Origin: Patescibacteria group bacterium
GTDB lineage: Bacteria > Patescibacteriota > Patescibacteriia > JAGPKW01
Length of the DNA: 43,063 nucleotides
Reading direction: 5' to 3'
Assembly: GCA_021734125.1 (NCBI GenBank)
Contig: JAIPJN010000003.1
Span: 1 to 43,063, forward strand
A program made the translations under genes and the position numbers. The notes under the pieces are model-generated. The model worked only from the letters and a program-made list of their open reading frames with translations, did not search any database and was not told where the DNA came from. Positions 221-38,889 of this stretch are shown in pieces. How positions within the stretch are numbered: the first letter of the stretch is position 1; each line of letters begins with the position of its first letter.

Positions 221-243
221 GTAGGGGCGCACATTGTGCGCCC
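221..243 (+). repeat. REP-like palindrome, family A
   Basis: GTAGGGGCGCACATTGTGCGCCC. Identical copies at 27951 and 29842, inverted copy at 21799. Confidence 0.9.
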
Positions 244-276
244 TTCATTATTTTAAAATATTATTATATAAAATAT

Positions 277-301
277 GTGGGAACGCGCCGTGGCGCGTTC
301 C
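277..301 (+). repeat. REP-like palindrome, family B
   Basis: GTGGGAACGCGCCGTGGCGCGTTCC. Related copies at 8006, 8979, 21639, 27879, 30721. Confidence 0.9.
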
Positions 302-398
302 TTTTTAAATATAAAAAATATTAATTTTAAATCAAAACGTACATTAAATTATTTGGAACAAATGTGTAATTTATTTAATAATATTAATATATAAATTT

Positions 399-433
399 GT
401 AGGAACAGGACGACAAAGTCGTCCTGTTCCTAC
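399..433. repeat. REP-like palindrome, family C
   Basis: GTAGGAACAGGACGAC-AAA-GTCGTCCTGTTCCTAC, a perfect 16-bp stem. Related copies at 10760 and 29908. Confidence 0.9.
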
Positions 434-442
434 TATCCACAT

Positions 443-471
443 TTGACATTTATATAAAAAAGTTATATCAT
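443..471 (+). promoter_or_regulatory. sigma70-type promoter upstream of tRNA-Lys
   Basis: TTGACA-N17-TATCAT. Confidence 0.6.
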
Positions 472-534
472 ACATCTTATATTTATTATAAAAAAAGAAA
501 AATATATTTTTTTTAATTAAATAATAATATAAAT

Positions 535-607
535 AGGTCCTTAGCTCAGTTGGTAGAGCAACAGCCTTTTAAGCTGATGGTCGCGGGTTCGAGTCCCGCA
601 GGGCCTA
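535..607 (+). tRNA. tRNA-Lys(TTT)
   Basis: Acceptor stem AGGTCCT/AGGGCCT, D arm GCTC..GAGC, anticodon loop CT-TTT-AA, T loop GTTCGAGTC. Followed by CCG rather than CCA. Confidence 0.95.
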
Positions 608-666
608 CCGACCATTCAATAAACACCAAATTAGTTTATTTAAAAAATAGATGGTATAATAACAAT

Positions 667-891
667 ATGAATTGGAACAGTTTTATTAAAATTTTACAAA
701 TCACATCTTCCATATTATTAATAATAGCAGTATTATTACAGGGTAAACATTCAAGTTTATCAAATTTATTTGGAGGAGATGGAAGTTTTTATGCTACCAG
801 AAGAGGTGCGGAAAGATTTTTATTTATTTTTACAATAATATTAGCTTTTATGTTTGCAGGTAGTATATTAATAGATCTCATACTATTATAA
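667..891 (+). CDS. secG: Preprotein translocase subunit SecG
   Basis: Two TM helices and VLLQ..LS..FGG..FYATRRGAE motif. True start is the ATG at 667 because the ORF-track start at 550 lies inside the tRNA. Confidence 0.9.
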   Translation: MNWNSFIKILQITSSILLIIAVLLQGKHSSLSNLFGGDGSFYATRRGAERFLFIFTIILAFMFAGSILIDLILL

Positions 892-899
892 TTTTTTTT

Positions 900-2630
900 A
901 TGAACAATCATAAGAGATTTAATCTTAGAATTATTTCTAAAAAGAAAAAAGGTTTACCTAGTTTTAAACAACTTAAATATTTAAAAAAATATTTAAACAA
1001 AACAGAAAAAAGTATATTAAAAATATCATTTTTAGTTTTTTTATTAAGTTTTGGTTATTTTCTTTATGTTTCATATTCAAAGATTGAAAATATACCAGAT
1101 TATGGTGGTTCATATATTGAAGGAGTTATAGGACAAATGCAATATCTAAATCCAGTTTTAGCTGATACTAATAGTGTTGATGTAGATATAAATAAATTAA
1201 TATATAATTCTTTATTTAAAACAAAAAATAGAGAAATAGTACCAGATTTAGTAGAATCATATGAAATTAATAATGATGGTACAAAATATTCCTTTACATT
1301 AAAAAACAACATATTTTGGCATGATAATAAGCCTTTAACATCAGAAGATGTAGTTTATACAATAAAAACAATTCAAGATATCAAATATAGAAGTCCATTA
1401 TATTTATCTTTAAAAGATATAGAAATAGAAAAAACAGGAATTTTTACTTTTGATATAAATTTAGAAAAAGCTTATAATCCCCTAATTTCAACGCTAACAT
1501 TTGGAATAATTCCTAAACATATTTGGTCTAACATTAATTCATATAATTTTGCTTTATCTAAATATAATTTAAAACCAGTAGGAACAGGGCCTTATAAATA
1601 TAAATCACTAACTAAAAGCAAAGATGGTTTTATAAAATCATACACTCTACAAGTCAATGATTTATATTTTAGAAAAAAACCATATATAGAAAATTTTACT
1701 TTTAGATTCTTTAATGATAAAACAGATTTAATTGAAAAATTTAAAGAAAAAAAAGTCACTAGTATAAGTTATATAGAGCATTCTGAAAAAGAGCTTTTAA
1801 ATAAAAAAAATACAAATTTTTATAATCTTTATCTCCCTAAATACGACGCAATTTTTATAAATTCTGAAACTAATTCATTATTAAAAGAAGATTATATCAG
1901 AGAAAGTATGTGTCTTGGTACAGATAAATATGAAATTATAGAAACAGTTTTTGAAAATGATGCAAAAAAAGCAGATAGTTTATTTCCTGAAAATATGCTA
2001 GGTTATGATCCTGAATATAGTTTATGCGAATTTAATCCTAGTAAAGCCGTATCAATTATAGAAGAAAATGGATGGGAAAGAAGTGTAAAAGATGGAATTA
2101 TGGAAAAAGATGGTAAAAAATTAGAATTCATATTAACAACAGTAAATAATAAAGATAATGAAAAAGTTGCTAATATTATTAAAAAACAATGGGAAAATTT
2201 AGGAATAAAATTAAATATACAATTAATAGATAATAATTTTATAAAAGAAGAAGCAATAAAACCACGTAATTATGATTTATTATTATATGGCGAAGTTGTA
2301 GGTGCAAATTCTGATCCATATGCTTTTTGGCATTCATCACAAAGTAAAAATCCAGGTTTAAATTTATCTGTTTATGGGAGTAGTTCTGTAGATGAAGCAA
2401 TAGAAAAAGCAAGAAAAGCAACAACAGAAGAAGAAGTTTTAGAAGAATATAATACAATAAAAGAAATATTTAAAAACGATATACCTGCAATATTTTTATA
2501 TAATAATAGCTATATATACGTTACTTCAGATGAAGTTTATGGAATAAATTTAAATCAAAATATTACATATCCAAATGATAGATTTAATAATATTGAAGAA
2601 TGGTATGTTAAAACTAAAAAAAGATTTTAA
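900..2630 (+). CDS. ABC transporter substrate-binding protein, family 5 (OppA/DppA-like)
   Basis: N-terminal TM anchor, LNPV, PDLVES, FWHD..LTSEDVVYT and PVGTGPY motifs. Confidence 0.9.
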   Translation: MNNHKRFNLRIISKKKKGLPSFKQLKYLKKYLNKTEKSILKISFLVFLLSFGYFLYVSYSKIENIPDYGGSYIEGVIGQMQYLNPVLADTNSVDVDINKLIYNSLFKTKNREIVPDLVESYEINNDGTKYSFTLKNNIFWHDNKPLTSEDVVYTIKTIQDIKYRSPLYLSLKDIEIEKTGIFTFDINLEKAYNPLISTLTFGIIPKHIWSNINSYNFALSKYNLKPVGTGPYKYKSLTKSKDGFIKSYTLQVNDLYFRKKPYIENFTFRFFNDKTDLIEKFKEKKVTSISYIEHSEKELLNKKNTNFYNLYLPKYDAIFINSETNSLLKEDYIRESMCLGTDKYEIIETVFENDAKKADSLFPENMLGYDPEYSLCEFNPSKAVSIIEENGWERSVKDGIMEKDGKKLEFILTTVNNKDNEKVANIIKKQWENLGIKLNIQLIDNNFIKEEAIKPRNYDLLLYGEVVGANSDPYAFWHSSQSKNPGLNLSVYGSSSVDEAIEKARKATTEEEVLEEYNTIKEIFKNDIPAIFLYNNSYIYVTSDEVYGINLNQNITYPNDRFNNIEEWYVKTKKRF

Positions 2631-2729
2631 AACTCTTAAATAAAAATAAATAAAAAATTAAATAGGTATTATTTATAATATCTAAATTAAATATAAATAA
2701 TTAATTAGTTAATAAATTAAATAAGAATA

Positions 2730-4520
2730 ATGGACACAAATAGTTCTCAAAACAGAAATCAAAAAAATATTTCTGAAAATAAAAAAACATTAAGAAGACC
2801 CACAAAAGGAAAATCTTCTTACAAAAGAAAAATATACGATCTAAGAAATACACCAAAAGATACCCTAGTTTCTTTTTCACTTGGTGGACAAGAAGAAGTT
2901 GGTATAAATATGATTGGATATAAATATAATGATGATATTATTTTTATAGACATGGGATTAGAATTCCCAGATGAAGAAATGCTTGGTGTTGATTATATAA
3001 TTCCAGATATAACTCCTCTTAGAGGTTTAGAAAAAAATATTAAAGGAATTTATATAACTCATGGACATTATGATCATATAGGAGCAATACCTCATCTTAT
3101 AGATAAACTTGGAAATCCAAAAATATATGGATTAAAACTTACTATAGGAATGATTAAAAAAAGACAAGAAGAATTTAGAGTTAAATCAAAACCTAATTTC
3201 ATTGAAATTGATATTGATGATACTTTAAAATTAGGAGTTTTTAAATTAAGTTTTATAAGAGCTTCTCATAATATTCCTGATAGTTCTATGGTTATAATAG
3301 ATAGCCCAGTAGGAAAAATAATACACACAGGAGATTATAAATTTGATATGACTCCAGTTGATTTTAATGAGACTGAAATACATAAAATAGCAGCCTTACA
3401 TAATCAAAAAGTATTAGCATTATATGCAGATAGTACAAATGCAGATCAACCTGGGCATCAAATTTCAGAACTTAAGGTTGAAAAAAGTATTAGAGAGCTT
3501 TTTACTAAAGCAGAAGGAAGAATAATTATTGGAACATTCGCTTCCCTATTATCTCGTATACAACAAATTATTAAGGTTTCTGAAGAATTAGGAAAGAAGG
3601 TAGTTATAGATGGTAGAAGTATGAAAAATAATGTAGCAATAGCCCATGAACTTGGATATTTAAAATATAAAAGAGGAACAATCATAGAATATAAAGATAT
3701 GGGAAGATATCCTGATAATAAGATTGTAGTAGCGTGTACAGGAGCACAAGGTGAAGACAGGGCTGTGCTTATGAGAATTGCTAATAATGAACATAGACAA
3801 ATTAGAATTCAAAAAGGAGATACAGTAGTTTTTAGTTCATCAGTTATTCCTGGTAATGAAAGATCAGTTCAAAAGTTAAGAGATTCTTTATATAAACATC
3901 ATGCAAATGTAATTAATTATACTATGATGGATATACATGCTGGAGGACATGCAAAACAAGAAGATATTAAACTCTTAATTAAATTAATAAATCCTAAATT
4001 TTATGTTCCAATTTATGGAACTCACACCCATCTTAAATTAAATGCTGAAGTTGCAGAAGAAACAGGTATTTTAAAAGAAAATATATTTACACCGTTTAAT
4101 GGACAACTTTTAGAGTTTAATAAAAGAGAAGAAGCTAAAATAGCAGAAAGTAAATTATATTTAAATAATATTTTAGTTGATGGTTTAGGTATTGGGGATG
4201 TTTCTGGTATAGTTCTAAGAGATAGAAAACAAATGTCTGAGCATGGAATGATAGTTATAATATCTACTATAAAAATGTCAACAGGAGATCTTGTAGGAAA
4301 TCCAGATATTATTTCGAGAGGTTTTATATATATGAATGCAAATAAAAAATTAGTTGAGGATATTAGAACAAAAGTAAAAGAAACGCTAAAAGATTCTGAT
4401 CCTTTGACTCCAGCAAACCAATCTTATATAAAAGATAAAGTAAGAGAAGATATAACAAAATTTATATATAAAAGAACCCATAGAAATCCTATGGTTCTTC
4501 CAGTTATATTACTTATGTAA
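2730..4520 (+). CDS. rnj: Ribonuclease J
   Basis: LGGQEEVGIN, THGHYDHIGA, HTGDYK, TGAQGE, HAGGHA and RNPMVLP motifs. Confidence 0.95.
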   Translation: MDTNSSQNRNQKNISENKKTLRRPTKGKSSYKRKIYDLRNTPKDTLVSFSLGGQEEVGINMIGYKYNDDIIFIDMGLEFPDEEMLGVDYIIPDITPLRGLEKNIKGIYITHGHYDHIGAIPHLIDKLGNPKIYGLKLTIGMIKKRQEEFRVKSKPNFIEIDIDDTLKLGVFKLSFIRASHNIPDSSMVIIDSPVGKIIHTGDYKFDMTPVDFNETEIHKIAALHNQKVLALYADSTNADQPGHQISELKVEKSIRELFTKAEGRIIIGTFASLLSRIQQIIKVSEELGKKVVIDGRSMKNNVAIAHELGYLKYKRGTIIEYKDMGRYPDNKIVVACTGAQGEDRAVLMRIANNEHRQIRIQKGDTVVFSSSVIPGNERSVQKLRDSLYKHHANVINYTMMDIHAGGHAKQEDIKLLIKLINPKFYVPIYGTHTHLKLNAEVAEETGILKENIFTPFNGQLLEFNKREEAKIAESKLYLNNILVDGLGIGDVSGIVLRDRKQMSEHGMIVIISTIKMSTGDLVGNPDIISRGFIYMNANKKLVEDIRTKVKETLKDSDPLTPANQSYIKDKVREDITKFIYKRTHRNPMVLPVILLM

Positions 4521-6502
4521 TGGATTTTAAATTAGTATCACAATTTAAACCTAATAGAGATCAAGAAAAAGCAAGGGATTTTATAGTATCAAGAATACAA
4601 GAAGGAGATAAATACTCTACTTTATTAGGGGTTACAGGAAGCGGTAAAACTTTTACCGCTTCTTCTATAATTGAAAAAATACAAAAACCAACATTAGTAA
4701 TTTCTCATAATAAAACATTAGCTGCTCAACTTGCATCTGAATTTAAAAGCTTTTTTCCAAATAATGCTGTTCATTATTTTGTATCTTATTATGATTATTA
4801 TCAGCCAGAAAGTTATATTCCTACATCAGATACTTTTATAAATAAAGAAACTAGTGTTAATGAAGAAATTGATAGATTAAGATTTGAAGCTACGACTTCC
4901 CTACTTTCGAGAAAAGATGTAATTATAGTTGCATCTGTTTCTTGTATTTATGGTTTAGGAAAACCAGAAGATATAAAAAACAGATTTTTAAAAATATCTA
5001 AAAAAGATAAAATAAAAATATCTGAAATAGCCTCACATTTAACTGAAATACAGTATGAAAGAAATGATGTAGAATTATCAAGAGGAAAATTTAGAATTTT
5101 AGGAGATATAATAGAAATACATCCTGCAAATATGAAAAATTTAGTATATAGAATAGAATTTTTCGGTAAAGACATAGAAAAAATATCCCAAATTGACTTA
5201 TTAAATAGAAATACAGTAAAAGTATTAGATGAAATTTCTATACCTCCTGCAAGTCATTATTTAACGAAAAATGAAGAAATTAATTCAATTGTAAAAGAAA
5301 TAGAAAAAGAATTAGAAATACAAGAAGAATATTTTAAAAAAAATGGTAAATTAATAGAAGCTCAGAGGATAAGAGAAAGAGTTGCTTATGATATAGAAAT
5401 GATAAAAGAAATTGGATATTGTAATGGAATAGAAAACTATTCTAGATATTTAGATGGAAGAAGTGAAGGAGAAACACCATATACTTTAATTGATTATTTT
5501 GGTGATGATTATTTAACTATTGTAGATGAATCGCATGTAACATTACCCCAAATTAGAGGAATGTATAATGGTGATAGAGCAAGAAAGAGAAATTTAATAG
5601 AATATGGATTTAGATTACCTTCAGCATATGATAATAGGCCTCTTAGATATGAGGAATTTGAAGATAAAATGAATCAAATGGTATATATGTCTGCCACACC
5701 AACAAACGAAGAAATTATAAAAAGTGGAGATAATATAGTTGAGCAAATTATAAGACCAACAGGATTATTAGACCCTATTATTGAAGTTAGAAAAACGGAA
5801 AATCAAATAAAAAATTTAGTTTTAGAAATACAAAAAAACATCAAAAAAAATCAAAGAACATTAGTAATAACATTAACAAAAAAACAGGCTGAAGATTTAA
5901 CAGATTATTTAATAGATCTTAATATAAAAGTTAATTATATACATTCAGACGTAAAAACAATGGATAGAGTTGATATATTAAGAGATTTAAGAAAAGGAAA
6001 ATATGATGTTTTAGTTGGAGTTAATTTATTAAGGGAAGGTTTAGATTTACCAGAAGTTTCTTTAATAGGAATATTAGATGCAGATAAAGAAGGTTTTTTA
6101 CGATCTAAAACTTCACTTATTCAAATAATAGGAAGAGCTGCAAGACATAGTGGAGGTAGGATAATTATGTATGCCGATAAAATAACAGATTCTTTAGATT
6201 ATGCTATAAAAGAAACGAAAAGGAGAAGAAAAATTCAAGAAAAATATAATAAAGAAAATAATATTACTCCAACGTCGATTAAAAAAAATATAGAAGAAGC
6301 TGAAATTCCTGGAAGAGCTAAAAAAGAAGAAAAAGATTATAAAATATATAAAAAATTAAGTAAAAAGGATCTTAATTATATTAAAGAGAATTTAGAAAAA
6401 ACAATGCTAAAAGAAGCTAAAAATATGAATTTTGAAAATGCTAGTAGTTTAAGAGATGAAATTTTAGAGATAGATAGGATTTTAAAAAATAAAAAATTTT
6501 AA
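4520..6502 (+). CDS. uvrB: Excinuclease ABC subunit B
   Basis: LLGVTGSGKT, HNKTLAAQL, FVSYYDYYQPE, DESH, NLLREGLDLPEVSL, C-terminal UVR domain. Confidence 0.98.
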   Translation: MDFKLVSQFKPNRDQEKARDFIVSRIQEGDKYSTLLGVTGSGKTFTASSIIEKIQKPTLVISHNKTLAAQLASEFKSFFPNNAVHYFVSYYDYYQPESYIPTSDTFINKETSVNEEIDRLRFEATTSLLSRKDVIIVASVSCIYGLGKPEDIKNRFLKISKKDKIKISEIASHLTEIQYERNDVELSRGKFRILGDIIEIHPANMKNLVYRIEFFGKDIEKISQIDLLNRNTVKVLDEISIPPASHYLTKNEEINSIVKEIEKELEIQEEYFKKNGKLIEAQRIRERVAYDIEMIKEIGYCNGIENYSRYLDGRSEGETPYTLIDYFGDDYLTIVDESHVTLPQIRGMYNGDRARKRNLIEYGFRLPSAYDNRPLRYEEFEDKMNQMVYMSATPTNEEIIKSGDNIVEQIIRPTGLLDPIIEVRKTENQIKNLVLEIQKNIKKNQRTLVITLTKKQAEDLTDYLIDLNIKVNYIHSDVKTMDRVDILRDLRKGKYDVLVGVNLLREGLDLPEVSLIGILDADKEGFLRSKTSLIQIIGRAARHSGGRIIMYADKITDSLDYAIKETKRRRKIQEKYNKENNITPTSIKKNIEEAEIPGRAKKEEKDYKIYKKLSKKDLNYIKENLEKTMLKEAKNMNFENASSLRDEILEIDRILKNKKF

Positions 6503-7905
6503 TCAATATCTAATGTAAAAATATCTCCTGCTCCTAATATCAATACAAGATCTTTATTTTTTAGATTTTTTTTCATTTTTTTAGCAGTTTTAATAAGATT
6601 TCCTGAATATTTTATTTTTAATTTAGGATTTCTTTTTTTTATAGATTTTACTAATTCTTTAGAACTTACTATATTTTTAGTTTTTAAATCTCTACCAGAA
6701 GGTTCATAAATATCTGATATAAAACAAAAATCAGCATAATCAAAACATTTAATAAAATCAGAGAACAAATTTTTTGTTCGATTAAAGGTATGAGGTTGGA
6801 ATATAACAAAAATTCTTCTTGAATCATACATTCTTTTAGCCCCTATTATTACTTGATTTATACTTGTAGGATGATGTGCATAATCTAAAACATATATAAT
6901 ATCTTTTTTTATATCTTTTTTTATAATTTCAAATCTTCTATGAGATCCTCTAAAATTAAGTATTTTGTATTGCCAATCTAATATATTATGCCTTAATTTA
7001 TGCATTTTAGATATTGTAAAACAGGTAGCAATAGAGGTTAAAGTATTATATATATTAAATTTTCCTGGAATACTTAATCTAAATTCAGCTAAAAATTCTC
7101 TATTATAATAAATTTCAAAAATTTGAACACCATCTTTTGTATCACTAAACTGAGCTATAAAATCAGAATCTTCATTTATACCAAATGAAATAAAAGTTAA
7201 ATCATGTCTTTTTTGAGAAATTTTTTTTATTAATTTTCTAATATTTTCATCATCTTTATTATAAACAACAACTCCCCCATCAGGAAGTTTATTTATCATT
7301 TTTTCAAAGGCTAAAATTACATTTTCTAAGTTTTTATAATAATCCAAATGTTCTGCTTCTATGTTTGTTATAGTTAAAACATTAGGATTTAAATATAAAA
7401 AATGTTCCATATATTCACAAGCCTCAACAATTAAGATATTTGAGGTTCCTTTTTTATAATTTTTATTATCAAGCTCCAAAACTTTAGCACCAACTATAAC
7501 ATTAGGATCAAGTGTTGTATTAGATAATAATATAGAAGATATACTTGTTGTTGTAGTTTTACCATTTGTTCCAGAGATAGCTATAGTATAAAAATTTTCA
7601 GATATTTCTCCTACCGCTTGAAAATAAGTCATTTCAGGAATTCCAAAATTTTTAGCTCTTATTCTTTCTGGATTATTCTCTAATACAGCACTAGAATATA
7701 TTAATAAATCTATACTATCATCTATATTAGATTCTTCTTGAATATTATAAACTTTTATTTCAAGATCTGGTAACATATCTAAATTACCAGTATCACTTCC
7801 TACAACTTTAATTCCATTTTCAAATAAAAAACCAGCAAGGGCTGAAGTTCCAGATCCTGCTATCCCCGAAATATATATTTTTTTATATTTTTTTAAAAAA
7901 TCCAT
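6499..7905 (-). CDS. murC: UDP-N-acetylmuramate--L-alanine ligase
   Basis: GIAGSGTSALA, GTNGKTTT, EACEY, DYAHHP, FQPH, GAGDI. Likely start is MDFLKK at 7905, since the longer ORF runs through intergenic palindromes. Confidence 0.93.
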   Translation of the reverse strand: MDFLKKYKKIYISGIAGSGTSALAGFLFENGIKVVGSDTGNLDMLPDLEIKVYNIQEESNIDDSIDLLIYSSAVLENNPERIRAKNFGIPEMTYFQAVGEISENFYTIAISGTNGKTTTTSISSILLSNTTLDPNVIVGAKVLELDNKNYKKGTSNILIVEACEYMEHFLYLNPNVLTITNIEAEHLDYYKNLENVILAFEKMINKLPDGGVVVYNKDDENIRKLIKKISQKRHDLTFISFGINEDSDFIAQFSDTKDGVQIFEIYYNREFLAEFRLSIPGKFNIYNTLTSIATCFTISKMHKLRHNILDWQYKILNFRGSHRRFEIIKKDIKKDIIYVLDYAHHPTSINQVIIGAKRMYDSRRIFVIFQPHTFNRTKNLFSDFIKCFDYADFCFISDIYEPSGRDLKTKNIVSSKELVKSIKKRNPKLKIKYSGNLIKTAKKMKKNLKNKDLVLILGAGDIFTLDID

Positions 7906-7957
7906 TTCAATCATTATTAATATAACCATTATACGTAAAATATAATAAAAAATAAAG

Positions 7958-7997
7958 GTAGTGGCCAGAGATCTCTGGCCTATTGTCGTCCTGTTCC
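7958..7997 (+). repeat. Chimeric REP-like element (family D hairpin plus right arm of family C)
   Basis: GTAGTGGCCAGAGATCTCTGGCC-TATT-GTCGTCCTGTTCC, 38/40 identical to 8850-8889. Confidence 0.88.
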
Positions 7998-8005
7998 ATA
8001 ATATT

Positions 8006-8033
8006 GTAGGAACGCGCCATGGCGCGTTCCTAT
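8006..8033 (+). repeat. REP-like palindrome, family B
   Basis: GTAGGAACGCGCCATGGCGCGTTCCTAT. Confidence 0.9.
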
Positions 8034-8100
8034 GAATATTGTGCATTCGGAAAACAAAACATTTTATATTTTATTTTTTTAAAAAACATTTTATCAAAAT

Positions 8101-8131
8101 AAAAAATGCACATGTATTATTCATGTGCATT
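8101..8131 (-). terminator. Intrinsic terminator of the pentapeptide-repeat gene
   Basis: AATGCACATG/CATGTGCATT stem with a T run on the minus strand. Confidence 0.7.
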
Positions 8132-8151
8132 AAATATTAAATCAAAAAAAT

Positions 8152-8760
8152 TTATTCCCTATAAATTTTCTTAATTTTTATTCCCATATTCCTGAAAACT
8201 TTCACATCAAATCCTGTATATAAACAAGATTCAATTGAGAAATTATTTTTAATATTAGATCCACTAAGATCCATATTTTCAATAATTGAATTAGATATTT
8301 TAATATTATCAAAATAAGAAGAACAAAGAAAAGCCATTTGAAAAAAACATTTATTAAATTTTACATTTTTTAAAAAAGATCCTTGATGAGAAGCATGTAT
8401 AAATGTTGAATTTCTAAATTCAGAATCACTAATTTTAATTTCAGATGCAATACTTAAATGGGATACCAAATGTTCAAAAAAAGAATTTTTTATAATAGCA
8501 TTATCTAATTTACAGTGAGAAAAAAAATAAACATCTTCTAAAGTAGAAGAAATAAATTTACATTCCTTAAAAGAACAGTTTCTAAAATAAATAGAAACTA
8601 ATTCAGTATTTTCAAAACTATCACCATCAAAGATGCAATTATCAAATTTTAAATTTGATATAGCAAGACCTGATAGATCTATTCCAGTAAAATCTTTGTT
8701 CTTAATTGAACCTGTTTTTGAGATTATGAGAATAAAATCTTCTCTTGAAAAACTATTCAT
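8152..8760 (-). CDS. Pentapeptide-repeat protein
   Basis: Five-residue periodicity (DFTGI DLSGL, FDNCIF, FRNCSF KECKF). Start moved to ATG 8760, which follows GGAGG at 8766-8770. Confidence 0.85.
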   Translation of the reverse strand: MNSFSREDFILIISKTGSIKNKDFTGIDLSGLAISNLKFDNCIFDGDSFENTELVSIYFRNCSFKECKFISSTLEDVYFFSHCKLDNAIIKNSFFEHLVSHLSIASEIKISDSEFRNSTFIHASHQGSFLKNVKFNKCFFQMAFLCSSYFDNIKISNSIIENMDLSGSNIKNNFSIESCLYTGFDVKVFRNMGIKIKKIYRE

Positions 8761-8790
8761 ATTTTCCTCCAAAAAAATTGTTTAATGAAT

Positions 8791-8819: not shown

Positions 8820-8849
8820 TGTTTTGAAAAAAAATAAAGTATAAATATT

Positions 8850-8892
8850 GTAGTGGCCAGAGATCTCTGGCCTATTTTCGTCCTGTTCTTAC
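8850..8892 (+). repeat. Chimeric REP-like element (D plus half of C), second copy
   Basis: GTAGTGGCCAGAGATCTCTGGCCTATTTTCGTCCTGTTCTTAC. Confidence 0.88.
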
Positions 8893-8978
8893 AAAAAATA
8901 AATAATAATATTTTATTTATATAAAAATGCACATTAAATTACGTGCAAATTTATGGAAGAACATTAATGGACAAAAAT

Positions 8979-9003
8979 GAAACGCGCCACGGCGCGTTCC
9001 CAC
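8979..9003 (-). repeat. REP-like palindrome, family B
   Basis: GAAACGCGCCACGGCGCGTTCCCAC, continuing into the CATGAATT linker. Confidence 0.85.
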
Positions 9004-10759: not shown

Positions 10760-10794
10760 GTAGGAACAGGACGATAAAATCGTCCTGTTCCTAC
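10760..10794. repeat. REP-like palindrome, family C
   Basis: GTAGGAACAGGACGAT-AAA-ATCGTCCTGTTCCTAC, with a compensatory C:G to T:A change relative to 399-433. Confidence 0.9.
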
Positions 10795-10883
10795 CATTGT
10801 TGATTATTATTAACATTATTATATAAATTGCACGTTTGTTTTTATGTGTATTAATTTAAAAATTATTGTTTTGATTTATTTAT

Positions 10884-10924
10884 CGGGTGCACAATGTTTA
10901 TGACCAGCCATGGCTGGCCACTAC
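10884..10924 (-). repeat. Chimeric REP-like element (degenerate A arm plus family D)
   Basis: CGGGTGCACAATG..GACCAGCCATGGCTGGCCACTAC. Confidence 0.8.
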
Positions 10925-21638: not shown

Positions 21639-21925
21639 GTAGGAACGCGCCGTGGCACGTTCCTACATGAATTGTGAAATTTCAAATTAAACGGGCGTAT
21701 AATATGCGCCCGATAAATAAAATATTAAAATATAATTTATAAAAAATATATATAAAAAATGTGCGTAATTTTATTAAATAACATTAATAAAATTAAATGG
21801 GCGCACAATGTGCGCCCCTACATGAATTGTGAAATAAAACGATAATTTTTAAATTAAACGGGCGCACGCTTTTCGTGGAAAGCGCCGTGGCGCGTTCCCA
21901 CATGAATTGTTAAATAAAATAATAA
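21639..21925. repeat. BIME-like mosaic cluster of four REP-like palindromes
   Basis: B at 21639-21666, A variant at 21692-21712, inverted A at 21799-21821, A/B chimera at 21859-21901. Three CATGAATTGT linkers. Confidence 0.9.
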
Positions 21926-27878: not shown

Positions 27879-27973
27879 GTGGGAACGCGCCGTGGCGCGT
27901 TCCCACATGAATTGTGAATAAATATTATTTTAATTATGATTAAATATATTGTAGGGGCGCACATTGTGCGCCC
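27879..27973 (+). repeat. REP-like cluster: family B (27879-27906) plus family A (27951-27973)
   Basis: GTGGGAACGCGCCGTGGCGCGTTCCCAC and GTAGGGGCGCACATTGTGCGCCC, with CATGAATTGT linkers at 27906 and 27984. Confidence 0.9.
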
Positions 27974-28645: not shown

Positions 28646-28669
28646 GTAGGGGTCAGCGATCGCTGACCC
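28646..28669 (+). repeat. REP-like palindrome, family E (single copy in window)
   Basis: GTAG-GGGTCAGCGATCGCTGACCC, a GTAG head plus perfect 20-bp palindrome. Confidence 0.75.
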
Positions 28670-29833: not shown

Positions 29834-29841
29834 TATCTTAT

Positions 29842-29940
29842 GTAGGGGCGCACATTGTGCGCCCGTTTAATTTAAAAAATATTATTTTATTTATTAATTG
29901 GATGGGTGGAACAGGACGACCAACGTCGTCCTGTTCCTAC
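29842..29940. repeat. REP-like cluster: family A (29842-29864) plus family C (29908-29940)
   Basis: GTAG heads mark both outer ends (GTAG...CTAC), a REPIN-like doublet between divergent orphan genes. Confidence 0.9.
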
Positions 29941-30390: not shown

Positions 30391-30396
30391 AAAAAT

Positions 30397-30430
30397 AAAG
30401 ACTAGCTATATAAAGTAGCTAGTCTTTTTT
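30397..30430 (+). terminator. Intrinsic terminator, possibly bidirectional
   Basis: AAAGACTAGCTA/TAGCTAGTCTTT followed by a T run. Confidence 0.85.
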
Positions 30431-30450
30431 AAAATTTTTGAAATAATAAA

Positions 30451-30606
30451 TTAAAAAAATAAAGGACAGTTTTTAGTTCCGTATGAAGGACAGTTTTTTG
30501 CTTTTACACAAAAATCTTTTTTTCTGTCTTCTTCAGGAAATTCACCTTTTGGTGGAAAATCCGGAGCTTGAAAAAACTCCCTGATTTTAAAAAGTATTTT
30601 TTTCAT
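30451..30606 (-). CDS. Small Cys-containing peptide, 51 aa (not in ORF track)
   Basis: MKKILFKIREFFQAPDFPPKGEFPEEDRKKDFCVKAKNCPSYGTKNCPLFF*, AGGAGG at 30612-30617. Confidence 0.72.
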   Translation of the reverse strand: MKKILFKIREFFQAPDFPPKGEFPEEDRKKDFCVKAKNCPSYGTKNCPLFF

Positions 30607-30635
30607 TTCTTCCTCCTATAAAATTTTCTATAACA

Positions 30636-30664
30636 TTTATACATTAATTTAAATAAAAGGTCAA
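30636..30664 (-). promoter_or_regulatory. sigma70 promoter of the 51-aa peptide gene
   Basis: TTGACC-N17-TATAAA. Confidence 0.65.
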
Positions 30665-30720
30665 TATCCTTAAAATAAAGATGCAATTTTATATAATAAC
30701 ATCAATTTTTTAAATCAAAT

Positions 30721-30766
30721 GGAACGCGCCACGGCGCGTTCCCACATTCATAATATGCGTTCCCAC
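30721..30766 (-). repeat. REP-like palindrome, family B, plus duplicated half arm
   Basis: GGAACGCGCCACGGCGCGTTCCCAC, then GCGTTCCCAC again at 30757-30766. Confidence 0.88.
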
Positions 30767-30803
30767 ATGTACAAATATGAATTATAAAATAAAACAAATT
30801 ATA

Positions 30804-32285: not shown

Positions 32286-32335
32286 AATTATGATTTTAAA
32301 AGTTAATGATATCTATATTATTAGCAGAATATAAG

Positions 32336-33931
32336 CTAAAAATCAATTTTTTTATTTAAAATATTTTTATCTAAATAAGTAATATAAACTATAATAAAGC
32401 CTATTCCTAGAGGATGATTTAAATATGGCGTAAAAAAGTTAACTACTAAAATAAATAAAAATGATAAAGTAAGTCCAAAAGCAACAATTCTATAATCCTC
32501 TTTTTTTATTTTATTTATATTTTTTATAGATAAATACAATAAAGCTAGTATAAAATATATAAAAATCAAAAATCCAAATATTCCAAATTTTAGTAATGTA
32601 TCAAAATAACCCCATTCTAAAGCGTAAGTTGTATACATACCCCCAACATTTTTTGCAACATTAGTAGGATCAGCACTTTCATAAGTTATTTTATATCCAA
32701 ATCCACCACCTAAAATAAAATTGTTTTTTATTTCTTCATAAAGTGGTTTAAGCATATTTATTCTAGACGACCCTGCAGCTTCTTGAGTCGGATTAGAAAG
32801 TCTTTCATTTAACCCTTTTGTAAAATTTGATGAAGATCCTGGAGGAAAATTAGTAAAAACAAATATAAATCCATAAGCTATTAAAAATGAAGTTATTCCG
32901 AGTAAAAATGTCCTAAAAAAAGAATAAAATAATTTACTTTTTTTATCTCTTATTATAAATAAAATGACAAAAATTGATATAAAAGAAGCAATAATTCCAA
33001 CCCAAAAACTTCTTGAAAAAGAAAGTATAGTGGAAATTGAAGCAAGAGTTAATAATAATATAAAGAGTTTATTTTTATCTGTTATTTTTTTTATTTTTAT
33101 CCTTGAATATGAAAATTTATAAGCAAAAATAGAAATTAAAAAAATAATCAATCCAGAAATATATATTTGAGATTGCATAAAAATTCTAGAAAAACCATAA
33201 GACATACTAGTAACTTCAGCTATTCCAAAATCAAAAAGCCAACTATAAAGATTTGATAAATAAAAAGGATTTACATGAGAAAAAATCCATAATAAAAATA
33301 AAGTAAAAAACATCAAAATCAAACTAGAAGCAACAGATAAAGATAATAAATCATAATAATCATCTTCTTTTTTAAATAAATCATAAAAAGGTAATAAATA
33401 TAGAAGAAATAAAAAACCATTCATATCAAAAAAAGTATCAGAAAAACCATTTCCATTTAATATTCCTAATATAAAAGCAAATAATAAAACAAGAAAAAAT
33501 ATGAAATAATATTTAAAAAATCTTGATTTTCTAAATGAAAAATAATTAATTTTTTTATTAACCAATAATTTTTGATCATTACTAAATTTATTATTAATAA
33601 TATCAATCAACAATTTTGAAAACCAAATTGATAAAATAATAACGAAAAATGCAATTCTTAAAGAAATTTGAAATCCAGAAAATTCAAAAAATAAAATATA
33701 ACCTTTAGAACTTATAATTAATTCAGCTAGAGCAATAAGCATACCTGCTTTTAGATTTTTATATGAAACTATAAAAAATATAATTACATAAACAAAAAAA
33801 GCTATATTATTAAAATCTTGATATAAATAAGCAATAAAAGAAAAAATTAAAGTTAAAACAGAAAATAATACAGTATAAGTAAAATAATCACTCTTAAAAA
33901 TTTTATTAATTGAAAGTTTTTCTAAAATCAT
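32336..33931 (-). CDS. O-antigen ligase/polymerase-like (Wzy_C) membrane protein
   Basis: Many TM helices, SFSRSFW, SR..M, ILGGGFG, L..FGIFG. Confidence 0.75.
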   Translation of the reverse strand: MILEKLSINKIFKSDYFTYTVLFSVLTLIFSFIAYLYQDFNNIAFFVYVIIFFIVSYKNLKAGMLIALAELIISSKGYILFFEFSGFQISLRIAFFVIILSIWFSKLLIDIINNKFSNDQKLLVNKKINYFSFRKSRFFKYYFIFFLVLLFAFILGILNGNGFSDTFFDMNGFLFLLYLLPFYDLFKKEDDYYDLLSLSVASSLILMFFTLFLLWIFSHVNPFYLSNLYSWLFDFGIAEVTSMSYGFSRIFMQSQIYISGLIIFLISIFAYKFSYSRIKIKKITDKNKLFILLLTLASISTILSFSRSFWVGIIASFISIFVILFIIRDKKSKLFYSFFRTFLLGITSFLIAYGFIFVFTNFPPGSSSNFTKGLNERLSNPTQEAAGSSRINMLKPLYEEIKNNFILGGGFGYKITYESADPTNVAKNVGGMYTTYALEWGYFDTLLKFGIFGFLIFIYFILALLYLSIKNINKIKKEDYRIVAFGLTLSFLFILVVNFFTPYLNHPLGIGFIIVYITYLDKNILNKKIDF

Positions 33932-33941
33932 TATATATAAA

Positions 33942-34838
33942 TTAAATTTTACCTTGTCCTCTTGGTTTTATTTTAAATATTTTTACCAAAAAAGACAAAA
34001 AGATACTAATAAAAGAAAAAATATAAATAAAAAAATATGGTATTTTAGAAAAATATTTCTTTGAATATATTTTCATACCCTTATTAAATCTTTTTTGTTT
34101 TTTTATAGATTCTACTTGATTAAAACTTCTTCCTTCATAATGAATAACTTCTGAAGTAGGAGTGTAAATTATTTTTTTTCCTAAATCATAAACTTTTTTA
34201 CAAAGATCTACATCCTCCCACCATAAAAAATAATCTAAATTCCAACCACCAATATTTTTTATAAAATTAGATCTTGCAAAAATGAATGCACCCATAATTT
34301 GATCTACTTTAGATTCTTTAGAATAATCAAAATCTGATAAAAAATATTTTTTAAAAAGCTTAGTTTTGCTAAATAAATGATGCAATTTAAGAAGTACACA
34401 AATGTTTATAATTGGAGTTGGTAATCCTTTTACGTTGTGCTGAATATCCCCTTCTTTATATTTTAATTTTGTGGTTGATAATACAATATCTTTTTCTTTA
34501 TCTTCCATAAAATTAAACATTTTATAAAAAGTATTTTCTGTAATTTCCATATCAGGGTTCATAAATAAAATATATTTACTATCTGATTTTTTAATACCTA
34601 TATTATTTCCTAAACTAAAACCATTATTTTTTTTAGTATCCAAAACTTCTAATAATCCTCTATTTATTTCATTTTTAAAATTTTCTTTCAACAAAAAAAC
34701 AGTATTATCAGAAGAATTATTATCTACAACAATAACTTTATAATCTAAATTTTTTGTAAAATTAAAAATAGATTGAAGATTTTTTATCAACAATGAAGAA
34801 ACGTTCCAAGTAACAATTATAGTATCTAAATCTCTCAT
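33942..34838 (-). CDS. Glycosyltransferase family 2
   Basis: IIVTWN, VVDNNSSD, GFSLGNN, FMNPD, EDVDLC. Confidence 0.92.
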   Translation of the reverse strand: MRDLDTIIVTWNVSSLLIKNLQSIFNFTKNLDYKVIVVDNNSSDNTVFLLKENFKNEINRGLLEVLDTKKNNGFSLGNNIGIKKSDSKYILFMNPDMEITENTFYKMFNFMEDKEKDIVLSTTKLKYKEGDIQHNVKGLPTPIINICVLLKLHHLFSKTKLFKKYFLSDFDYSKESKVDQIMGAFIFARSNFIKNIGGWNLDYFLWWEDVDLCKKVYDLGKKIIYTPTSEVIHYEGRSFNQVESIKKQKRFNKGMKIYSKKYFSKIPYFFIYIFSFISIFLSFLVKIFKIKPRGQGKI

Positions 34839-35965
34839 TTTTTGTATATTTCAATAGTTTTCTTAGCTATTTTATTCCAATTTAATTCTTTTTCTGCAAA
34901 ATTATAAGCATTTTTAGAAATTTCATTTAATTTTGAAGAATTATTATAAATTTTTAAAATTTTATCTGCCAAATCTTTATAATCAGAAGTCTTAAAAGTA
35001 TAACCATTATATGAATCTATTATAATAGAAGTAAAAGCATTAAGAGATGATGTAATAACAGGTGTATTAAATGCAAAAGCAGTATGAATAGCTCCACTTT
35101 GATAAATATTTTTATACGGATAACAAGCTAAATCAGATGCATTAAAAAATTTAGAAATTTCATTTATTTTTATATATTCTGGGAATAAATAAAATCTGTC
35201 TTTTAAATCTTTATTTAATAAATCTAAAACATATTTATCTACAATTTTTCCAGAAATTAAAAGACAAATATTTTCAGGTAAATGAGATAAAGATTTAATT
35301 AAAACATCTAAACCTTTATAATTTCTTATATAACCAAAAAATAATATATAAAATTTATCTTCTGGTATTTCTAATAATTCCCTTGCTTCTTTTTTTGTGT
35401 AAATTTTATTAAAATCCCTAAAATTTAAATAATTTCCATGAGGTATTACGAAAATTTTTTCTTGCTTAATATCAAAAATATTAATAATATCTGTTTTTAT
35501 ATAATCTAAGTGAACTATAATTTTATTAAAAGAATTATAAAATTTTTTGTATTTTTTAAATAAATGGCTTTTTGAAAAACTTTTTAAATCATATTCTAAA
35601 GGAATTAAATCATGAACTGTAAATACTATAGGTTTTCTATAAAAAAACTTTAAACATTTTATAAAAAATGAATCAAATTTAACACTTATAGGCCATTGAA
35701 AATGTATAGTATCATATCTCCCAAATAAAGCAGTGAAAAAAATAATACAATAATTCCAAAATAACCTAATTAATTTATGAAATATATTTCTTGTATCTTC
35801 ATAAAGCAATGGACTTAAAGAACATTTTAATTTAAAAAAAGAATATTCAGAAATATCAGAAGTAAGTATTTTTACTTTATTATTATCAAAAAGCGCCTTA
35901 GCAAAAGAGGCAGTATAATGAAGAATACCACCAGATTTTAAGGTATTTATAATTAATATTTTCAT
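34835..35965 (-). CDS. Glycosyltransferase family 4
   Basis: FTVHD, VIPHG, FFGYIRNYKGLD, QSGA..AFAFNTPVI. Confidence 0.92.
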   Translation of the reverse strand: MKILIINTLKSGGILHYTASFAKALFDNNKVKILTSDISEYSFFKLKCSLSPLLYEDTRNIFHKLIRLFWNYCIIFFTALFGRYDTIHFQWPISVKFDSFFIKCLKFFYRKPIVFTVHDLIPLEYDLKSFSKSHLFKKYKKFYNSFNKIIVHLDYIKTDIINIFDIKQEKIFVIPHGNYLNFRDFNKIYTKKEARELLEIPEDKFYILFFGYIRNYKGLDVLIKSLSHLPENICLLISGKIVDKYVLDLLNKDLKDRFYLFPEYIKINEISKFFNASDLACYPYKNIYQSGAIHTAFAFNTPVITSSLNAFTSIIIDSYNGYTFKTSDYKDLADKILKIYNNSSKLNEISKNAYNFAEKELNWNKIAKKTIEIYKK

Positions 35966-35994
35966 TTATAAATAATTTTATATAATATTTATCT

Positions 35995-36021
35995 GTAGTG
36001 GCCAGCTAGGCTTTCCACTAC
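35995..36021. repeat. Degenerate REP-like palindrome, family D
   Basis: GTAGTGGCCAGCTAGGCTTTCCACTAC. Confidence 0.75.
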
Positions 36022-36029
36022 ATTATTTT

Positions 36030-38783
36030 TTATGCCCCACAACAATGTTTGTATTTTTTACCACTACCACAAGGACATGGATCATTTCTACCCACTTTTT
36101 TACCATGCTTATCTCTTAATTTTTCAGCATTTCCTTCCCGTGAACTAGTTTCTTTATTCATTTTTTCTCTAATATCATCTTTCTTTAAAAAAGCATTGAA
36201 TTGTTCTTTTTGTTCAGCTCCGGTCATTTTAATATCTTTTAAATTGTCAGCATTTTCTGGGGTTATTAATTTAACTTTAAAAATAGAGTAAACAATTCTA
36301 TTTTGGATATCATCCATCATCTTATCAAAAGCCATATAAGCTTCTTTTTTATATTCAACAAGAGGATCTCTTTGTCCATAACCTCTCAAACCTATTCCCA
36401 TTCTTATTGAAGATATATTTTCAAGATGTTCTATCCAAAGTCTATCAATAACTCTTAAAATAATATTTTTTTCTATTCCTCTTAATATTTCGGGAGTAAT
36501 ATCTTTTTCTAAAAGCGCATAAGAAGAAGCCGCTAAATCAAATAAATATTTAACGATAGCTTCTCTATATTTTTCTACATTCTTTTCATTTTTTTCTCTT
36601 AAATTTTGTAAAATCTTTTCCATTCCTGAAACTCCCTCTTTTAAAGGAAATATAGTAAGCATAGTTTCTGATATTTCTTTTAAATCCCATTCTTTAGAAT
36701 TTTCTTGTGCAGCATGAAATGTTACAACTTGGTTTATTTCAGATTTAATAAAATCTAAAATAATTTCTCTAGAATTTTCATTATTTTCTAATAAATAATT
36801 TCTTTTATTATAAATTAAATTTCTTTGATTATTTAAAACATCATCATATTCAACAAGGTGTTTTCTGATATCAAAATTATTCCCTTCAACTTTTTTCTGA
36901 GCAGATTCTAAAGATCTAGAGACTAATTTATTCTCAATAGGAAGATCATCTGGAATACCCATTCTATTCATCATATTTTTCATTCTATCAGGAGAAAATA
37001 TTCTCATAAGATCATCTTCTAAAGAAACATAAAATCTACTTTCACCAGGATCTCCTTGACGACCAGACCTACCACGAAGCTGATTATCTATTCTTCTAGC
37101 TTCATGTCTTTCTGTTCCAACAACATACAAACCGCCTAATTTTTTAACTTTTTTATATTCTTCATCCTCTTTTGGATTTCCTCCCAACATAATATCAACT
37201 CCCCTACCAGCCATATTAGTAGCAACAGTAATAGATTTAGATTTACCAGCTTGAGCTATAATTTCAGCTTCTCTTGCATGATTTTTAGCATTTAAAACTT
37301 CATGAGGAAGTCCTGCTTTATCTAATAATTTATCTAATAATTCATTTTTATCTATAGAAGCAGTACCAATCAAAACAGGCTGACCTTTTTCATATCTTTC
37401 TCTAATATCCTGTATTACAGCATCAAATTTAGCTTTTTCTGTTTTATAAATTTTATCAGACTTATCTAATCTTATAACAGGTTCATTTGTAGGCACTACT
37501 ATAGTTTCTAAATTATAAATTTTACTAAATTCTTCAGCTTCAGTTATAGCTGTACCAGTCATACCAGCCAATTTATTATACATTCTAAAATAATTTTGTA
37601 ATGTTATTGTAGCTAAAGTTATACTTTCATTTTTTATATCTACACCTTCTTTTGCTTCTATTGCTTGATGTAAACCCTGAGAATACCTTCTACCCGGCAT
37701 AAGTCTTCCTGTAAATTCGTCAACAATAACAATTTCTCCTTCTTTTATTACATAATCTCTATCAATATTAAATAAAACTTCAGCTTTTAAAGCTTCTTCT
37801 AAATGGTGAACAAGTAAAATTCCTTCATCTGTATAGATATTTGCAACTCCAAGCATAGATTCTATTTTTGCTAAACCTTCTTCAGTAAGTGTTGCCGTTC
37901 TCATTTTTTCATCAATATTATAATCAGTTTCTGCATTTAATCTTTTAACAATTTGAGCAAATTTATAATATTGATCTTTATCTCCACCAGAAGGGGCTGA
38001 AATTATAAGGGGTGTTCTAGCTTCATCAATTAAAATACTATCAACTTCGTCTACTATAGTATAATTTAATTCTCTTTGGACTTGATCTTCTTTCTTATCA
38101 ACCATATTATCTCTTAAATAATCAAAACCAAATTCATTATTAGTTCCGTATAAAATATCTAAATCATAAGCTTCTTTTCTAGTAACGGATGTAAATTTAA
38201 ATTTATAATTTCCAACAGTTTCAAAAAATGAAGAAGAAGTTTCTTCATCTTCATCTGTTTTTTCATTACTATCTAAAATTTCAAGTTTCATAGATGTTTG
38301 ATGACCTATAAAACCAACGCTAAGTCCTAAAAAAGTATAAACTTTTCCCATATTAAAACAATCTCTTTTTGCAAGATAATCATTAACAGTTACAATATGA
38401 ACTCCTTTTCCAGAAAGACCATTTAACACTCCAGGTAAAGTTGCAACTAGGGTTTTTCCTTCTCCGGTTTTCATTTCACAAACATAATTTTTGTGTAAAA
38501 AATATCCAGCTAAAACTTGAACGTCAAAATGAGTCATTTTTAGAATTCTTGTAGAAGCTTCTTTTGTAATAGCAAAAACATCTTCTAGAATATCTTCCAT
38601 TTCTTGTTCATAATCTTGTGATTCTAAAATTTTATTTTTATAATTATAAATTGCATTTTTTAATTCTATATCAGATAATTTACTATATTTTGAGGATAAA
38701 GAATTAACTTTTTCAACAATTATTTGATTTTTTTTCATTATTTTTTCATTTGGATCAGGAAAAATTTTATTTAAAAAAGACAT
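36030..38783 (-). CDS. secA: Protein translocase subunit SecA
   Basis: EMKTGEGKT, DEVDSILIDEARTPLIIS, QLRGRSGRQGDPG, SEC-C motif. Confidence 0.99.
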   Translation of the reverse strand: MSFLNKIFPDPNEKIMKKNQIIVEKVNSLSSKYSKLSDIELKNAIYNYKNKILESQDYEQEMEDILEDVFAITKEASTRILKMTHFDVQVLAGYFLHKNYVCEMKTGEGKTLVATLPGVLNGLSGKGVHIVTVNDYLAKRDCFNMGKVYTFLGLSVGFIGHQTSMKLEILDSNEKTDEDEETSSSFFETVGNYKFKFTSVTRKEAYDLDILYGTNNEFGFDYLRDNMVDKKEDQVQRELNYTIVDEVDSILIDEARTPLIISAPSGGDKDQYYKFAQIVKRLNAETDYNIDEKMRTATLTEEGLAKIESMLGVANIYTDEGILLVHHLEEALKAEVLFNIDRDYVIKEGEIVIVDEFTGRLMPGRRYSQGLHQAIEAKEGVDIKNESITLATITLQNYFRMYNKLAGMTGTAITEAEEFSKIYNLETIVVPTNEPVIRLDKSDKIYKTEKAKFDAVIQDIRERYEKGQPVLIGTASIDKNELLDKLLDKAGLPHEVLNAKNHAREAEIIAQAGKSKSITVATNMAGRGVDIMLGGNPKEDEEYKKVKKLGGLYVVGTERHEARRIDNQLRGRSGRQGDPGESRFYVSLEDDLMRIFSPDRMKNMMNRMGIPDDLPIENKLVSRSLESAQKKVEGNNFDIRKHLVEYDDVLNNQRNLIYNKRNYLLENNENSREIILDFIKSEINQVVTFHAAQENSKEWDLKEISETMLTIFPLKEGVSGMEKILQNLREKNEKNVEKYREAIVKYLFDLAASSYALLEKDITPEILRGIEKNIILRVIDRLWIEHLENISSIRMGIGLRGYGQRDPLVEYKKEAYMAFDKMMDDIQNRIVYSIFKVKLITPENADNLKDIKMTGAEQKEQFNAFLKKDDIREKMNKETSSREGNAEKLRDKHGKKVGRNDPCPCGSGKKYKHCCGA

Positions 38784-38865
38784 TTTTTTCGTACATTAAA
38801 CAATTAATTATTATAATTTTACAATAAAATTACAGAAAATGCGAATATAAATAAAAATTATACAA

Positions 38866-38889
38866 TGGCCAGCCATGGCTGGCCACTAC
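38866..38889 (-). repeat. REP-like palindrome, family D
   Basis: TGGCCAGCCATGGCTGGCCACTAC. Confidence 0.88.

Follow-up and report, generated by a model that had tools for sequence, protein, structure and literature searches.

GTAG-tagged palindromes of seven families and their probable RAYT partners in an AT-rich patescibacterial genome

Contig JAIPJN010000003.1 of a Patescibacteria group bacterium (assembly GCA_021734125.1) carries some twenty short, GC-rich hairpins. We analyzed this contig over its whole length of 43,063 nucleotides (the window, contig C21 in our numbering) together with the other contigs of the genome. The hairpins are very probably GTAG-tagged repetitive extragenic palindromes (REPs), i.e. 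non-autonomous elements whose partners are REP-associated tyrosine transposases (RAYTs, TnpA_REP) of the HUH/Y1 type, belonging to subclass 2.4 or group 4. The element is of a known kind. Some features of its architecture are unusual, namely the number of families, arrays that are mostly direct, arms common to several families, and a family B that looks orphaned. No published description of REPs or RAYTs in Patescibacteria was found in a search that did not extend to subscription journals.

The genome comprises 663,346 bases in 30 contigs with 23.5% GC, at a completeness of 69.6% and a contamination of 0.21%. The GC fraction is 0.21–0.27 per contig and 0.20–0.29 per 2-kb piece. The stretch is present in four lake-water sequencing runs. 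An earlier note, made from the letters of the window, had suspected a member of the candidate phyla radiation (CPR). This assignment is consistent with the genomes of the relatives, which span 0.4–2.1 Mb at high completeness, and with the presence of the stretch in lake water.

The genome-wide count that the earlier note had proposed was carried out as a Hamming scan with seven family cores (A–G, up to 4 mismatches) and yielded 141 copies, namely 27 of A, 48 of B, 13 of C, 25 of D, 20 of E, 3 of F and 5 of G. They occupy 81 loci, and the counts are lower bounds since the repeats break up the assembly. The density is 0.21 copies per kb. The core matched exactly in 85 of the 141 copies, including 15 of A and 35 of B. 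No match was obtained in three shuffled genomes with an earlier version of the family pattern set. With a core length of 18–31 nt the elements are short GC-rich palindromes, as in the GTAG-tagged REP superfamily, whose palindromes measure 20–40 bp. They are likewise present in high copy number, dispersed and mainly extragenic, with 117 of 141 copies outside open reading frames (ORFs) on a crude map of 627 ORFs that covers 88% of the genome.

The head tetranucleotide is indeed shared between the families, as had been noticed in the window: GTAG, GTGG or GTAC stands on at least one side of 130 of the 141 copies. This does not depend on the family cores, because a pattern-free test found such a head on 99 of the 113 perfect GC-rich hairpins of the genome. 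Eight of the 14 unheaded hairpins are family copies with a damaged foot; about six look ordinary and are flanked by A/T runs. A double foot (GTRG...CYAC) is present in 14 copies of family B and two of family C. As single-stranded DNA (ssDNA), representative copies fold into hairpins of −7.2 to −17.6 kcal/mol, with z-scores of −3.4 to −10.2 against shuffled sequences.

The window itself contains 20 copies within 4 mismatches of a core and one decayed copy, in agreement with the approximately 20 intergenic hairpins first reported:

221..243, plus strand: REP A, exact, GTAG and a 9-bp stem with a 1-nt centre (shuffle-tested scan, fold)
277..304, plus strand: REP B, core exact, GTGG head (scan)
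399..433, no strand assigned: REP C, exact, double foot GTAG...CTAC (scan, fold)
7958..7980, plus strand: REP G (D-like stem, AGATCT centre), followed by the 3' half of C; within the probably spurious start of the Mur ligase ORF (scan, fold)
8006..8033, plus strand: REP B, core exact, GTAG head (scan)
8850..8872, plus strand: REP G, exact, followed by the 3' half of C (scan)
8980..9003, minus strand: REP B, 1 mismatch, head on the minus strand (scan)
10760..10794, no strand assigned: REP C, exact, double foot (scan)
10901..10924, minus strand: REP D, 1 mismatch, with the 3' half of A behind it on the minus strand (scan)
21639..21666, no strand assigned: REP B, 1 mismatch, double foot (scan)
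21693..21711, no strand assigned: decayed A copy, 3 mismatches, headless (scan)
21799..21821, minus strand: REP A, exact (scan)
21878..21901, minus strand: REP B, 1 mismatch, fused to half of A at 21859-21877 (scan)
27879..27906, no strand assigned: REP B, exact, double foot, 13-bp stem (scan, fold)
27951..27973, plus strand: REP A, exact (scan)
28646..28669, plus strand: REP E, exact, followed by a T-rich run (scan, fold)
29842..29864, plus strand: REP A, exact (scan)
29908..29940, minus strand: REP C, arms exact, 6-nt centre (scan)
30722..30745, minus strand: REP B, core exact (scan)
35995..36022, plus strand: decayed D-like copy, GTAGTGGCCAGC...CCACTAC, broken stem
38866..38889, minus strand: REP D, exact (scan, fold)

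The four exact copies of family A (221, 21799 on the minus strand, 27951 and 29842) were recovered where the earlier note had placed them; none is expected from 100 dinucleotide shuffles. Family B gave five matches at up to 3 mismatches (277, 8006, 21639, 27879 and 30718), again with none expected in 100 dinucleotide shuffles. The Hamming scan added the B copies at 8979 and 21878 as well as the decayed A copy at 21693, so that all six proposed sites of family B stand and the copy at 21878 is new. The sites of families C (399, 10760, 29908) and E (28646) also held. Family D had to be divided. The copies at 10901 and 38866 are true D with a CCATGG centre, those at 7958 and 8850 form a separate family G with a D-like stem and an AGATCT centre, and the one at 35995 is decayed.

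A search of the whole genome with the Pfam profile Y1_Tnp (PF01797), suggested in the earlier note, found two HUH/Y1 genes, both outside the window:

C10:2957-3460, minus strand: RAYT1, 167 aa, PF01797
C28:2716-3258, minus strand: RAYT2, PF01797

The possibility that the genome holds no HUH/Y1 transposase, for which the earlier note had allowed, is thereby removed. RAYT1 scores 31.5 bits against PF01797, above the cut-off of 23. The best NCBIfam family of both proteins is REP_Tyr_transpos (NF047646) with an E-value of 1e-16. A single-sequence phmmer search with RAYT1 against the PDB returned chance matches only. A profile of 11 homologues, on the other hand, matched E. coli TnpA_REP (4ER8) with an E-value of 2.7e-9. 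Aligned to 4ER8, the residues H76, H78, W128, Q129, Y149, N153 and P154 are invariant in the 11 sequences. Both ORFs are intact and keep the HUH, WQ and Y-I-x-x-N-P motifs. An AlphaFold2 model (pLDDT 84, pTM 0.78) indicates that the RAYT proteins adopt the fold of Y1 HUH transposases; its top Foldseek matches were the TnpA proteins of IS608 (E-value 4.9e-7), ISDra2 and IS200, and 4er8_A was matched with an E-value of 2.5e-6.

Both genes are accompanied by repeats. RAYT1 is bracketed by A copies in inverted relation, at C10:2738(+) and 2927(−) on one side and at 3654(−) and 3849(−) on the opposite side; C10:3911 is the site of a B copy. RAYT2 carries the GTAC-headed family F in frame within its ORF (C28:2934), where the hairpin encodes an insert of 10 residues, and a second F copy over its annotated start (3248); B copies lie nearby at C28:3422 and 4386. 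A RAYT flanked by copies of its family (a REPtron) is therefore present for family A with RAYT1 and for family F with RAYT2, which bears out the RAYT-associated reading of the earlier note. For families C, D, E and G the assembly, at its completeness of 69.6%, revealed no REPtron. Copies of family B lie 150–450 nt from both RAYT genes, non-exclusively. RAYT1 lacks an internal hairpin. Taking this genome and its class relatives together, a hairpin lies directly after the HUH motif in 9 of 12 RAYT genes (8 of 10 genes in the relatives), and the same position is occupied in 17 of 33 loci from other phyla.

Adjacent repeats form clusters of mixed families: 40 of the 81 loci hold one copy, 30 hold two, 5 hold three, 4 hold four and 2 hold five. 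Among 42 adjacent pairs of single-foot copies at up to 200 nt distance, 34 are direct, 7 tail-to-tail and 1 head-to-head. We rejected a reading as inverted REP doublets (REPINs) or bacterial interspersed mosaic elements (BIMEs), since only 8 of these pairs are inverted and families are mixed. Copies with a double foot may be doublets that have collapsed, as Quentin 2018 (PMC6006769) remarks. AT-rich arm motifs are common to families A, B and C and were adjacent to a REP in 10 of 12 and 7 of 10 occurrences. The shared arms imply that the unit is longer than the hairpin. Pre-existing target sites do not explain them, because the arm motifs are found almost only beside REPs.

Several arrays are composites of half-hairpins, in which alternating 3' halves of D and A come after a complete A or D hairpin (C22:6677-6745, C30:2423-2470, C13:10653-10700, C24:6815-6860 and, in the window, 10872-10924 on the minus strand). 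Half of an A hairpin is fused to B at 21859-21901 of the window. The junctions of these composites coincide with the centres of the palindromes, a pattern suggestive of template switching or of recombination between hairpin tips.

The copies differ from their family consensus in a strongly directional manner, with 120 of 126 substitutions being GC>AT. It follows that GC-rich copies which are still exact must either be young or have been renewed. Where a stem pair was altered on both sides, Watson-Crick pairing was kept 38 times and broken once, with 49 changes on one side only; these counts refer to alignment cells and not to independent events. The core of family A has 18 sites in this genome and none in 400 other genomes of the phylum. 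That of family B has 42 sites here, two in one genome of the same class but another family (G007, at C39:6055-6074 and C25:6381-6400) and none in the remaining 39 of the 40 relatives searched. The two B copies of G007, in which the RAYT1 query found no RAYT, may reflect transfer or a shared old family. A de novo hairpin scan of two genomes from the same family found a head on 3 of 17 hairpins in 165 kb (G003) and on none of 4 in 160 kb (G001). The near absence of A and B from the searched relatives, together with the GC>AT decay, supports a recent and lineage-specific expansion; from the exact copies the earlier note had concluded recent spread or selection.

The RAYT type, by comparison, is common but patchy. 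The survey of other CPR genomes found it in 9 of 40 class relatives and, among 400 genomes sampled from the phylum, in 67. Among the named relatives in the genome collection are metagenome-assembled genomes of Dojkabacteria, Magasanikbacteria, Moraniibacteriota and Uhrbacteria, and also Bacteroidota, Chloroflexota, Cyanobacteria and others. The statement that such spread is unexpected in a reduced genome was consequently too strong, all the more as genomes with several families are known (described in PMC3733652).

A number of observations weigh against the interpretation as REPs with these RAYT partners. RAYT2 on its own is marginally below the Pfam cut-off (22.9 against 23 bits; 24.4 if both halves are summed), and the NF047646 scores of the two proteins (61.0 and 61.7 bits) fall short of the 80-bit cut-off. 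RAYT1 has a valine aligned to H101, the residue of E. coli TnpA_REP that contacts GTAG (Quentin 2018, PMC6006769). Two RAYT genes were found for seven families in the 69.6%-complete assembly, and neither carries or is uniquely bracketed by B, C, D, E or G. Adjacent copies are mostly direct and not inverted, unlike REPINs and BIMEs. Finally, 37 of the 51 single-foot copies found between tandem genes have their foot on the gene strand, a bias that could stem from selection at the RNA level as well as from strand-specific insertion.

Some of these points would also fit a relic, in which REPs spread in the past, the RAYTs have since been domesticated or crippled, and families B–E and G are orphans of lost enzymes. 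The surplus of families over RAYT genes, the valine of RAYT1, the hairpin-coded insert of RAYT2, the 1–4 mismatches in about 45 of the 141 copies and the fact that the B hairpin is part of RAYT ORFs in other environmental genomes (at 14 of 80 loci) and of neither RAYT here all point that way. However, the exact A and B cores persist despite the GC>AT changes, both families are nearly absent from the relatives, and both RAYT ORFs are intact with complete catalytic motifs. In-frame hairpin inserts are normal in subclass 2.4 according to Quentin 2018 (PMC6006769), and about 30% of the genome is missing from the assembly. We regard an extinct system as unlikely.

In relation to genes, tandem spacers hold 64 copies, divergent ones 20 and convergent ones 18; a further 15 copies are at contig ends, and 24 lie in an ORF or overlap one. 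Each kb of spacer contains 1.5 copies where the genes are in tandem, 1.3 where they diverge and 1.6 where they converge. The similar densities imply that the copies are not just terminators, and a confinement to the 3' ends of genes, which the earlier note had held possible, is not found; 13 copies even lie deep inside ORFs. A T-rich run (at least 6 T in 8 nt) follows 18 of 62 gene-downstream copies compared with 137 of 765 random spacer positions. Ordinary terminators were discarded as an explanation because 44 of the 62 downstream copies lack a T run and 20 copies occupy divergent spacers. A minority of copies, chiefly of family E, may double as terminators.

More generally, the hairpins could be structural elements of the host, kept as terminators or mRNA-stabilizing stem-loops, with an incidental link to the transposases. 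The strand bias in tandem spacers, the T-rich runs behind 18 of 62 downstream copies and the regular occurrence of such runs after family E are in favor of such a role, which nevertheless leaves unexplained why identical 20–30-nt sequences and their shared AT-rich arms recur at over 80 loci, why there is a GTAG foot and why RAYT genes are bracketed. It is also at odds with the copies in divergent spacers and deep in ORFs and with the many downstream copies without a T run, while the six or so unheaded hairpins with A/T runs look like ordinary terminators distinct from the REPs. We therefore consider this explanation very unlikely, although co-option of some copies is compatible with REP elements.

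The 13 copies deep inside ORFs (counting ORFs of at least 100 aa) are in frame and in sense orientation, and contribute short low-complexity loops to the proteins. The affected ORFs include those of DnaX, a class II aminoacyl-tRNA synthetase, UvrC, a VirD4/TraG-like protein, RAYT2, a C39-like peptidase and two unassigned proteins. In the aminoacyl-tRNA synthetase the REP is located in the linker between the catalytic and the anticodon-binding domain. Copies within ORFs were observed at C10:72, C14:11122, C24:4466, C30:23827, C30:23945, C25:5832, C25:5883, C25:11258, C25:11459 and C4:8813.

Three neighborhoods in the window contain further details. Some 100 nt upstream of a tRNA-Lys gene (535-609) is the cluster of A, B and C at 221-433, in which every foot is on the plus strand. 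A pentapeptide-repeat ORF (8152-8772, minus strand) is flanked on both sides by G with half of C and then B (7958-8033 and 8850-9003), an arrangement that resembles a cassette bounded by REPs or the product of a local duplication. The first 56 codons of the adjoining Mur ligase ORF (6499-8046, minus strand), which precede any Pfam domain, contain two REP copies. Its true start is probably downstream of the listed one and the N-terminal extension spurious, which means that REPs inflate ORF calls.

Eight copies are no more than 150 nt away from a contig end, and contigs C26 (1-29) and C28 (1-21) begin within a B copy. This could raise the suspicion that the palindromes are an artefact, produced when contigs were joined as chimeras, by contamination of the bin or by sequencing adapters. 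Short-read assemblies, however, commonly break off at repeats, and the contamination estimate is low. The copies are found between housekeeping genes on long AT-rich contigs, some in frame in conserved genes, and they show graded decay and compensatory variants. An artefact is thus extremely improbable.

Family B extends beyond this genome. Its exact core was found in 86 metagenome stretches, of which 80 were analyzed in detail. It has a double foot in 42 of these 80 and lies in frame in a RAYT ORF just past the HUH motif in 14 of these unrelated loci (L127, L128, L140, L143, L147, L149, L151-L153, L155, L174, L187, L193 and L198). The 14 RAYTs share 37–49% identity with RAYT1 and RAYT2 and are encoded on contigs of 29–44% GC; in them the B hairpin encodes the peptide RNAPRRVPT or GTRHGAFLQ. 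Neither RAYT of the present assembly contains the B hairpin. Its presence in RAYTs elsewhere implies a RAYT lineage cognate to family B that the assembly lacks.

A tentative model, which we put forward as a possibility and rate as rather doubtful, is that the in-gene hairpin serves as a protected master copy by which enzyme and substrate move and persist together, that families arise by replacement of the stem, and that one or two enzymes which read chiefly the GTAG foot and the shape of the hairpin drive a burst of several families. Since the arms are shared and the stems differ, new families would in that case originate by stem replacement on a common chassis. Family B would then either be served in trans by a non-cognate RAYT or be the orphan of a lost or transferred gene.

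Returning to the REP/RAYT system as a whole, we propose the following mechanism by analogy with the TnpA_REP proteins of E. coli, Stenotrophomonas and Marinomonas. In single-stranded DNA, for example at a replication fork, one strand of a REP would fold into the GC-rich hairpin. The RAYT would bind this hairpin together with the 5' GTAG or GTGG foot, and the HUH-bound metal and the catalytic tyrosine would cut and rejoin the adjoining ssDNA. A unit of about 60–75 nt, made up of the AT-rich arms and the hairpin, could in this way be copied into new AT-rich spacers, often beside existing copies. The copies would afterwards erode under GC>AT pressure, and only variants with a paired stem would be propagated. 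TnpA_REP is described as binding the folded ssDNA hairpin and as requiring the GTAG foot for cleavage (Corneloup 2021, PMC8266576). For the group with perfect palindromes the same source reports that the stem sequence matters little and that a stem mismatch abolishes cleavage. This agrees with the compensatory pairing pattern described above, and one enzyme might serve several stems. Cutting by the RAYTs, their pairing with particular families and current activity are inferred.

The host group is thought to be streamlined and poor in mobile DNA. To our knowledge, work on REP/RAYT systems has concentrated almost entirely on Proteobacteria and Cyanobacteria. The present genome, of about 1 Mb with 23.5% GC, has a full system at Pseudomonas-like density, and the RAYT type occurs in about one sixth of the sampled genomes of the phylum. 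Practical consequences are broken short-read assemblies, false N-terminal extensions of ORFs and in-frame inserts in housekeeping genes. The REPs also provide a ready marker for population studies at the strain level. The strong GC>AT decay acts as a built-in clock of copy age and could make REP turnover measurable, and the combination of many families with two enzymes is a natural test of whether foot and hairpin shape or the stem sequence governs REP recognition.

With E. coli TnpA_REP (YafM, 4ER8) the system shares the fold, the catalytic motifs, the GTAG foot 5' of the hairpin and the bracketing of the gene as a REPtron, at a sequence identity of approximately 16%. The REPs of E. coli are described as imperfect, bulged palindromes that alternate in BIMEs (PMC8266576, PMC2817692), whereas the stems here are perfect and the arrays mostly direct. 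The REPIN-RAYT systems of Pseudomonas resemble ours in having non-autonomous repeats, a single-copy RAYT and several lineage-specific families; a REPIN, however, consists of two REPs inverted to each other at a fixed short distance, which together make one long hairpin (Bertels and Rainey 2011, PMC3116915). In our genome 8 of 42 pairs are inverted and the clusters mix families.

The 2013 survey of GTAG-tagged repeats is older than CPR genomes. It describes short palindromes with several families per organism, RAYTs flanked by GTAG repeats, and copies inside ORFs including replication and repair genes, all of which we also observed (Di Nocera 2013, PMC3733652). The REPs of that survey are mostly downstream of ORFs, in unidirectional or convergent spacers (PMC3733652). 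In the present genome divergent spacers are equally dense.

Rickettsia palindromic elements (RPEs) are longer than the REPs here. They are similar in that they are palindromes of a reduced, AT-rich genome and also occur in frame in genes, but they end in CGTC and not GTAG, and the account in Di Nocera 2013 (PMC3733652) knows of no dedicated transposase for them.

The closest likeness is to subclass 2.4, which corresponds to RAYT group 4 of Bertels 2017 and for which Quentin 2018 (PMC6006769) describes long and double-foot REPs as well as a hairpin inside the RAYT gene. Both traits are present here, in the double-foot GTRG...CYAC copies and in RAYT2. For this subclass Quentin 2018 lists Cyanobacteria, Bacteroidetes and "various phyla"; the terms "Patescibacteria", "candidate phyla" and "Parcubacteria" do not appear in the main text of that paper, whose taxon lists are in the supplements. 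The system described here differs in that the YIxNNP motif reads YIIENP and YIRDNP, in that RAYT1 is without an internal hairpin, and in its setting, a host genome of about 1 Mb and 23.5% GC with seven families at 0.21 copies per kb.

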